From Escherichia coli (lineage in GTDB: Bacteria > Pseudomonadota > Gammaproteobacteria > Enterobacterales > Enterobacteriaceae): a stretch of DNA of 64,000 nt. Made by a program: the position numbers. Below are positions 12,001-15,000 of the stretch, one piece after another; positions within the stretch are counted from its first letter, which is position 1, and the number at the start of each line of letters is the position of its first letter. The DNA is taken from the NCBI RefSeq assembly GCF_017348835.2, contig NZ_CP071375.1; one strand, written 5' to 3'.

Positions 12001-15000
12001 CTTTGTGCTTTGTTAGAGATATAACCATCCCCATAGGTGGTCATGTTTAATGTTTCAGCGTAATTAGCTGCAAAGTAGATGTTGTTGGCATCATATTTTA
12101 TACCTGTGGCCCACAGTTCTGCATTCTTACCGGAGGCATTGAGAGGATTAGCAGCGGCTCTTTCCTGCGCATTTGTCCGATCGGATTTGGTATATACCGC
12201 ACCGATACCAAAGCCATCATAAACATAAGTTGAGGAGATACCGAAACCGTCACCGTTGGCACGCGTGTAGTCAGCACCATAAAGATGACTGTTGTCAGTA
12301 CGTTCATTTTTGCCTTGATATTGCGCGGCAAAGTTCAGCCCTTCAATTAAGCCAAAGAAATCGTAGTTGCGATAGGTTGCTACACCGGTGGTACGGTATG
12401 TCATGAAGACATCTTTCTGACTCCAGGTATCGCCACCAAATTCTGGCAACATATCGGTCCATGAACCAATGTCATAGCCGACACCGTAGTTACGACCATA
12501 GTCCAGAGAGCCAAATTCACTAATTTTTAAACCAGCATAGGCCAGACGGGTCTTGTTGCCGCGCGAGCCGTTGGCTTCATCGTATAGCCTTTAAAATCAT
12601 ATTCCCAGTGACCAAAACCAATCATTTGATCATTGATTTGCGTTTCTCCTTTAAAGCCGAGACGGGCATAAGTTTTATCACCATCGTCACGCTTATCATC
12701 AGTAAAATAACGTAGAGCGGTAACCTTGCCATAAAGGTCGAGTTTATTACCATCCTTGTTATAGACTTCGGCAGCGTGTGCTACGTTCGCAGCTAACAAA
12801 CCAGTTACAACCACCGCAACTATTTTTAATTTCATTTAACAGAATCCTTTTAATTATCGTTAAACGTATTTTCTAAACGAATTTTAAACAGCGTCATTTA
12901 TAAATGACATACTGTTTTTAAAATAGAATGGTGATTAAAAACAATGAGAAAAATAGATGAAATAATATTATTTATCGATATGTGATCGAAGTCGAAATGA
13001 GATATAAGGTGAATTACTGGTATTCGAAATTTATTTTTTAATATTGTCGGAATTTATCTGATTAACTGCCAGGCCGTAGACCCGGCAATTATTTTAGCCA
13101 CGACGTGTCGCCAGCCAACAGAGCAGGGAACCGCCGCAGACCATTAGCGCACCTTGCCAGAACGAGAACGACAGCGGGGCGCTGAGCAGCACGGCTGCAA
13201 GCGCTGAGGAAAGTACGGGCGTAAAATACGAACCTACCGCCATTATGGTGACGTTACCATGTAATATACCGACATTCCATGCAGCATAAGCAAATCCTAA
13301 GGTAAATGCCGCAGAGATGAGTTTAATCATGACGGGCGTGCTAAATACCATTTCTGGTTGTGGCGTGAGAAAATAGTAAACCCACAGACTTACTCCCGTT
13401 AGCAGGACAAAAACGGTAATTCCGTTAAATCCGCGTGCGTATTTATTCGTTACTGTGCAATAGGCTGCCCAGATAAACGCACCAATAAACGCCAGGAAAT
13501 AACTCAATGGGCTGGAGGTAATATTATTGATGATTTCATCATAATGTAACCCATTGTCACCGCCTAACACCCAGCAGACGCCGACCAGGGCTAATAATAA
13601 TCCTGGTACAATCAGCCAGTTGGTTTTCTGACCATTAAACAGAATGGCAAAGAGAATTGTCAGGCTGGGCCATAGATAGTTCACCATACCCACTTCAATC
13701 GCCTGATGACGGGTCGCCGCATACCCTAAGGAAAGCGCCAGACAGATTTCATAGCTGACGAATAACAGACTCCCGGCGAGTAAATAGCCTTTCGGGATTT
13801 GCCGAATACGCGGAAATCCAACCGTGAAGATTAACAGCAGCCCGCTTAATGAATAGATAGCAGCTGCGCCGCCGACCGGGCCGAGCCCCTCACTGACACC
13901 GCGAATCAATCCTACCATCGTGCTCCACAGGACGATCGCTATTAGCCCTATGAGCGTTGCTTTTTGTCGTGTCATGCTCGCTGTTTTGTCTCTCTTGCCG
14001 TTAAAAATTAAGCTGAATTTTATAGCATTTTTTTAACTGGCCTGTCAGGCAGTGGTGCGTTTTTCTACCGCTATTGAGGTAGGTCAATTTGCGCAGGCGG
14101 ATTATTTTGTGGCAAACACGTGTTCTTTTTGATTTCGCGCAAAAAGATTCAGAATTTTACTGTTAGTTTCCTCGCGCAGTAATACCCCTGAAAAAAGAGG
14201 AAAGCAATGGACGTCAGTCGCAGACAATTTTTTAAAATCTGCGCGGGCGGTATGGCTGGAACAACAGTAGCGGCATTGGGCTTTGCCCCGAAGCAAGCAC
14301 TGGCTCAGGCGCGAAACTACAAATTATTACGCGCTAAAGAGATCCGTAACACCTGCACATACTGTTCCGTAGGTTGCGGGCTATTGATGTATAGCCTGGG
14401 TGATGGCGCAAAAAACGCCAGAGAAGCGATTTATCACATTGAAGGTGACCCGGATCATCCGGTAAGCCGTGGTGCGCTGTGCCCGAAAGGGGCCGGTTTG
14501 CTGGATTACGTCAACAGCGAAAACCGTCTGCGCTACCCGGAATATCGTGCGCCAGGTTCTGACAAATGGCAGCGCATTAGCTGGGATGAAGCATTCTCCC
14601 GTATTGCGAAGCTGATGAAAGCTGACCGTGACGCTAACTTTATTGAAAAGAACGAGCAGGGCGTAACGGTAAACCGTTGGCTTTCTACCGGTATGCTGTG
14701 TGCCTCCGGTGCCAGCAACGAAACCGGGATGCTGACCCAGAAATTTGCCCGCTCCCTCGGGATGCTGGCGGTAGACAACCAGGCGCGCGTCTGACACGGA
14801 CCAACGGTAGCAAGTCTTGCTCCAACATTTGGTCGCGGTGCGATGACCAACCACTGGGTGGATATCAAAAACGCTAACGTCGTAATGGTAATGGGCGGTA
14901 ACGCTGCGGAAGCGCATCCCGTCGGTTTCCGCTGGGCGATGGAAGCGAAAAACAACAACGATGCAACCTTGATCGTTGTCGATCCCCGTTTTACGCGTAC

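Follow-up and report, generated by a model that had tools for sequence, protein, structure and literature searches.

The UGA triplet at codon 196 of fdnG (14792-14794, plus strand) and the hairpin that follows it are, with a probability that we put at about 97%, the selenocysteine codon and the bacterial SECIS element of this Escherichia coli formate dehydrogenase gene. The gene was analyzed within a window of 64,000 nucleotides, and all positions given below refer to this stretch unless another sequence is named. We make this identification because the sequence matches the curated SECIS_3 family, the TGA is conserved among homologues, the apical base pairs covary, and selection on codon choice is evident in the element. 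Both the selenocysteine codon and the SECIS element of fdnG are already known, from a report of 1991 and from a curated Rfam family of their own. Berg et al. are said to have described in 1991 the sequence of fdnGHI together with evidence that the opal codon UGA encodes selenocysteine in fdnG. As this is a textbook case of recoding, what is added here is a clean quantitative picture of the selection on codon choice: in diverse homologues it acts on the apical hairpin (an ACG codon, an AGU codon and two covarying wobble pairs), and the Enterobacterales freeze a much longer stretch. For annotation, the relevance is that the splitting of fdnG by an ORF caller must not be taken for a pseudogene.

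Family and anatomy of the element

The Rfam model SECIS_3 (RF01989) aligns over its full length (positions 1-59 of 59) to 14789-14847 on the plus strand, with 84.3 bits where the gathering score is 63 (E = 1.6e-19, or 1.4e-18 for the whole window). This is the only Rfam match at gathering level in the 64 kb. A first-pass annotation had described the sequence behind the TGA as positioned like a bacterial SECIS element, and this description is borne out by the SECIS_3 score and by the spacing and SelB-contact bases, which match those of the minimal SECIS of fdhF. The fdhF-type family SECIS_2 (RF01988) was also tried, and returned 28.8 bits against a gathering score of 70, with several non-canonical pairs; because this score lies below gathering, the fdnG element was filed under SECIS_3. 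On SECIS_2, fdhF of strain K-12 itself scores 87.1 bits.

The whole stem-loop begins 2-3 nt past the TGA and ends near 14839. Reading from the sequence, a spacer of 11 nt (14795-14805, plus strand) leads from the UGA to the apical hairpin and also provides the 5' strand of the lower stem. The apical, or minimal, SECIS hairpin, GGUAGCAAGUCUUGCUCC, occupies 14806-14823 on the same strand (18 nt, MFE −4.5 kcal/mol). Its GG/CC and AGCAA/UUGCU pairs make up an upper stem of 7 bp with one bulged U at 14808, which is U17 when counted from the U of the UGA, and its loop is GUC (14814-14816), with G23 at 14814 and U24 at 14815. The distance from the UGA to the first loop base is 19 nt (14795-14813). 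The arms proposed in the first-pass annotation, gcaag (14810-14814) and cttgc (14816-14820), do occur and complement each other perfectly, but they leave a loop of a single nucleotide and cannot form; the actual stem consists of AGCAA/UUGCU and encloses the loop GUC. Nor do these arms follow immediately upon the TGA, since they start 15 nt past it, and the end that had been assigned to the element, 14835, is a little short of both the end of the fold (near 14839) and that of the Rfam match (14847).

The minimum free energy structure of the E. coli sequence joins a lower stem to the apical hairpin (14797-14839, plus strand; MFE −13.8 to −14.6 kcal/mol). Pairing spans 14794-14839 when 49 nt are folded (−14.6 kcal/mol) and 14797-14837 when 46 nt are folded (−13.8 kcal/mol). 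The register of the lower stem in this structure is shifted by one relative to the Rfam consensus; in the SECIS_3 register (14795-14805 with 14829-14840) the E. coli sequence places A opposite G and A opposite C. Compared with shuffled sequence, the folding energies of these stretches were not significant (z = −1.45 for the 49 nt, −1.58 for the 46 nt and −2.06 for the 18-nt apex), and folds as good were obtained from 9-19 of 200 shuffles. For the 91-nt context around the hairpin the z-score was −0.54. Given that the z-scores are not significant alone, folding energy was left out as evidence.

The SECIS of fdhF (RF01988, SECIS_2) is the experimentally dissected prototype, and the fdnG element is one of the three E. 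coli formate dehydrogenase elements on which the general bacterial SECIS model was founded. When the two were aligned, as the first-pass annotation had suggested, they were found to share one register: in both, the UGA is followed by CACGG and an 11-nt spacer, the hairpin starts with GGU and is closed by GG/CC pairs, U17 is bulged, and G23 and U24 are equally far from the UGA. They differ in that the apical stem of fdnG is 1 bp longer (18 nt versus 17 for the hairpin), with a GUC loop in place of the GGUC of fdhF, and in the encoded peptide and the lower stem. In the minimal SECIS of E. coli the upper stem-loop lies 11 nt after the UGA, with U17 bulged out and an apical loop that contains G23 and U24 (Liu et al. 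1998, via PMC8659212); U17 and G23 are the sites of SelB contact, and the upper 17 nt of the SECIS form the functional core (PMC8659212). The fdnG sequence has this spacing, the bulged U17 and the loop bases G23 and U24, and RNA folding predicts a hairpin at the required distance from the UGA. According to the bacterial SECIS model (PMC13188914, Fig. 2A), the loop has 3-9 nt and carries a G at its first or second position, as a rule with G or U next after it; the upper stem has 4-16 bp, the loop lies 16-37 nt from the UGA, and the MFE is −7.5 kcal/mol or lower. With its 3-nt GUC loop, 7-bp stem, distance of 19 nt and MFE of −13.8 to −14.6 kcal/mol, the fdnG element falls within all four constraints, and we found no difference between it and the general bSECISearch-type consensus.

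Conservation and covariation among homologues

A protein-anchored scan with one genome per species yielded 80 Enterobacterales loci of fdnG or fdoG, 79 of which had enough upstream sequence for comparison. TGA occupied the homologous codon in 79/79, across many genera and in both paralogues. The 59-mer of the E. coli element was found unchanged in 67 of these loci, from Escherichia, Citrobacter, Salmonella, Enterobacter, Klebsiella, Yersinia, Photorhabdus, Providencia and others. The fdoG element of K-12 is likewise identical over the 59 nt and has the same SECIS_3 score, so that the alignment with fdoG proposed in the first-pass annotation came out as an exact match. Around it, fdnG and fdoG share 71 nt of perfect identity, against a background in which they differ every ~5-6 nt. 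This run is centered on the SECIS and extends over 14789-14859 in the window and 7171-7241 (minus strand) in the K-12 fdoG sequence.

A perfect run of this length amid such frequent differences is what gene conversion between the paralogues could leave behind, and the 59-71 nt of identity would then owe nothing to selection on an RNA element. We consider this very improbable, as the same 59-mer recurs in 67/79 loci and conversion within a genome would not fix it between genera. Gene conversion may contribute to the identity of fdnG and fdoG, yet the main cause must lie elsewhere, and the nature of the element is unaffected by the question.

At synonymous sites, the Enterobacterales fdnG and fdoG genes are frozen from codon 195 to codon 217 (14789-14857, plus strand), as judged from codon entropy. 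The mean synonymous entropy is 0.07 bits within the element (codons 197-212) versus 1.14 bits outside it, a ~16-fold reduction (Mann-Whitney p = 2.5e-10). Codons 213-217 (14841-14857) still average only 0.15 bits, a value derived from n = 3 informative degenerate codons (p = 0.003). The freeze therefore reaches ~15 nt past the 3' end of the hairpin in this order, whereas the same codons vary freely in the metagenome homologues described below. An additional requirement on the lower stem and the ~15 nt beyond it, specific to the Enterobacterales and exceeding what SelB recognition needs, seems unlikely to us; if there is one, it could lie in co-adaptation with SelB or the ribosome entry channel of the enterobacteria, in a role in timing or pausing, or in a second ligand. 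Codon bias and shared ancestry are alternatives for the long freeze, and codon bias may be the cause of its portion beyond the hairpin.

With 67 identical 59-mers, the Enterobacterales set was too invariant for covariation analysis, and metagenome contigs were therefore searched. The query was a back-translated peptide pattern that left synonymous sites free and allowed TGA, TGC or TGT at the selenocysteine position. Although the pattern accepted the Cys codons equally, TGA was present in 115/115 usable homologues; these were picked by an identical 14-residue peptide, so the figure applies to close homologues and leaves Cys-type and more distant ones unsampled. Together with the 79/79 loci of the Enterobacterales, this agrees with the expectation that the TGA should be present in orthologues. 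One contig of the search (L194) carries an E. coli-type SECIS but departs from fdnG right after ...CGCGGTG and continues GTGTACCTGATCGAA; it may be a chimeric contig or may record an insertion breakpoint inside the gene.

Among 80 distinct variants of the 59-mer, the apical helix was paired in 100%, and U17, G23 and U24 were invariant in 80/80 (the G and U being alignment columns 26 and 27). Pair 21-33, which joins the third positions of Val201 and Ala205, was GC in 61 variants, AU in 14, GU in 3 and CG in 2, and pair 24-30, which joins those of Ala202 and Leu204, was CG in 57, AU in 19 and GC in 4; neither was ever broken. From the same counts it can be calculated that independent assortment of the columns would leave ~82% (Val201/Ala205) and ~58% (Ala202/Leu204) of the variants paired. 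These two synonymously variable apical pairs have undergone 16 and 23 double-sided changes. The apical covariation score was 0.126-0.141, versus 0.055-0.069 in shuffled alignments, none of which (0/500) reached the observed value, although the variants are phylogenetically related and the shuffle controls overstate the significance. A control in which the partner strand was slid scored 0.03-0.06, also below the observed value. RNAalifold recovered the same apical helix without guidance. The lower helix was ~79% paired across the 80 variants in either register, that of the Rfam consensus or that of the E. coli MFE structure, and neither was clearly better; the lower stem is thus weakly supported as a conserved structure.

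Codon choice points to the same bases. Thr200 is encoded by ACG and Ser203 by AGU in 109/109 variants, in spite of the four and six synonymous codons available to these residues, and G15 (paired with C32), A22, G23 and U24 are fixed as a result. Nearby codons for Gly, Pro, Thr and Phe are free to vary in the metagenome variants. Across a wide phylogeny, codon-choice selection, as read from these alignments, falls exactly on the bases of the apical hairpin, in agreement with the upper 17 nt being the functional core (PMC8659212).

It might be argued that only the protein is under constraint here. The active-site peptide UHGPTVASLAPTFGRG is invariant in all homologues examined and the lower stem shows little structural conservation, as would be expected if the RNA fold had no function and the UGA were read by, for example, a near-cognate tRNA. 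This explanation is excluded for practical purposes because the signal sits at synonymous sites: ACG and AGU never change, the third positions of Val201/Ala205 and Ala202/Leu204 covary with pairing kept in 80/80 variants, and the synonymous entropy in the Enterobacterales drops within the element.

The fdnG reading frame and operon

fdnG, the gene for the alpha subunit of formate dehydrogenase-N, extends from 14207 to 17254 on the plus strand (1015 codons plus stop). As noted in the first-pass annotation, its frame contains a single in-frame TGA at codon 196; upon translation of the 1016 codons, 14792-14794 was the only internal stop. The UGA is assigned as Sec196 on this ground and on the conservation of the TGA. 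The gene had been named fdnG, and this name holds: the two halves of the product match the NCBIfam profile TIGR01553 at positions 1-194 and 196-1009, and RefSeq annotates the 100% identical fdnG of E. coli strain PE164 as a single intact CDS of 3048 nt. The two profile matches leave exactly one position for the UGA, and the profile runs colinear across it. On its own, the C-terminal part reaches 1317 bits, where the curated cutoff is 814. Identity with PE164 extends over a 3.2-kb region that includes fdnG. Among 5426 complete E. coli genomes, fdnG was found in 5425, as was selAB; the sel genes lie outside the window.

A mechanical ORF list breaks fdnG at the TGA into 14207-14794 (195 aa) and 14843-17254 (803 aa), exactly the split that the first-pass annotation had mentioned and had attributed to a selenoprotein rather than to a pseudogene. 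We came to the same view from the conservation of the TGA and the intact downstream frame. The opposite reading takes the TGA for a nonsense mutation, regards fdnG as a split gene or a pseudogene and puts the hairpin down to coincidence. It could appeal to this ORF list, to the unremarkable folding z-scores and to the presence of a real nonsense pseudogene, ddpA, in the same window, but it is hardly tenable when this codon is TGA in 79/79 loci and 115/115 metagenome homologues, the 819 codons downstream of it are intact and score 1317 bits, RefSeq records an intact CDS, and the sequence matches a curated SECIS family. ddpA (34460-36010, minus strand) is interrupted by a TAG at codon 203 (35402-35404) and is annotated as a pseudogene ('internal stop') in the closest RefSeq genome; it is a useful contrast to the UGA of fdnG.

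The fdnGHI operon is intact. Downstream of fdnG on the plus strand are its operon partners fdnH, for the beta subunit of formate dehydrogenase-N (17267-18151; TIGR01582, 482 bits), and fdnI, for the gamma subunit (18144-18797; NF007558, 486 bits), both of which carry the corresponding RefSeq annotation. yddG lies upstream of fdnG on the opposite strand. A scan for promoter and terminator consensus sequences over 13900-19000 gave nothing that exceeded the expectation from shuffles. A twin-arginine motif, SRRQFFK, is encoded at the N-terminus of FdnG (14216-14236), and its sequence is consistent with Tat export of this selenoprotein subunit. Directly downstream of fdnI, at 18848-19410 on the minus strand, is a gene pair for a HigA-family antitoxin (yddM) and a RelE/ParE-family toxin. 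A hairpin in the gap between fdnI and yddM had weak matches to sRNA families only; these matches near 18788-18859 (STnc320 and SdsR; E = 1.9-3.1) were below the Rfam threshold and were taken as chance.

Recoding model and other loci in the window

From what is established for the fdhF and fdnG systems of E. coli, the selenocysteine codon and SECIS element of fdnG would operate as follows. When a ribosome arrives at the UGA (14792-14794), the mRNA just downstream would form the hairpin, whose apical part (14806-14823) would present the bulged U at 14808 and the loop G and U at 14814 and 14815 at a fixed distance of 11 nt from the UGA. To this apical hairpin the specialized elongation factor SelB would bind with its C-terminal domain, and the tethered complex of SelB, GTP and Sec-tRNA(Sec) would be held beside the A site, where selenocysteine would be inserted in competition with release factor 2. 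Translation would then go on to give the catalytic subunit of 1015 residues, with Sec196 presumably at the molybdenum center, and would be expected to end after 195 residues if selenium or SelB were lacking. The binding of SelB, the roles of U17, G23 and U24, the contest with release factor 2 and a catalytic function for the selenocysteine are all inferred from what is established for these systems.

Another molybdopterin oxidoreductase gene of the window, ydeP (~57749-60028, minus strand), belongs to the FdhF/YdeP family. Its annotation is that of an ordinary CDS, and the Rfam search of the 64-kb window gave no SECIS match at this locus, which makes ydeP a relative of the formate dehydrogenases that is not itself a selenoprotein.

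Collinearity with PE164 extends over the whole window. Three base differences precede 44573, where there is a 2-bp indel, and further k-mer mismatches, sampled every 50 nt, occur near 46.0 kb and beyond. The indel at ~44573 falls in gadB: the window does not have the extra TA that is present in PE164, where gadB is annotated as frameshifted, and judging from this sequence the gadB of the window is probably intact. An ompC-like porin gene at 11736-12835 (minus strand) is annotated as frameshifted in the near-identical PE164 record. Beside it, at 8991-10975 on the minus strand, the same record places the type III secretion leucine-rich-repeat effector gene espR1 and a truncated LRR fragment. The interval between osmC and ddpF (23859-30604) holds genes for a 3-hydroxybutyrate dehydrogenase, a GntP permease, a 3-hydroxyacyl-CoA dehydrogenase, a thiolase, the A and B subunits of a CoA transferase and a LysR regulator. 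This cluster, which we take to be absent from K-12 at the same position, may be a strain-variable island.
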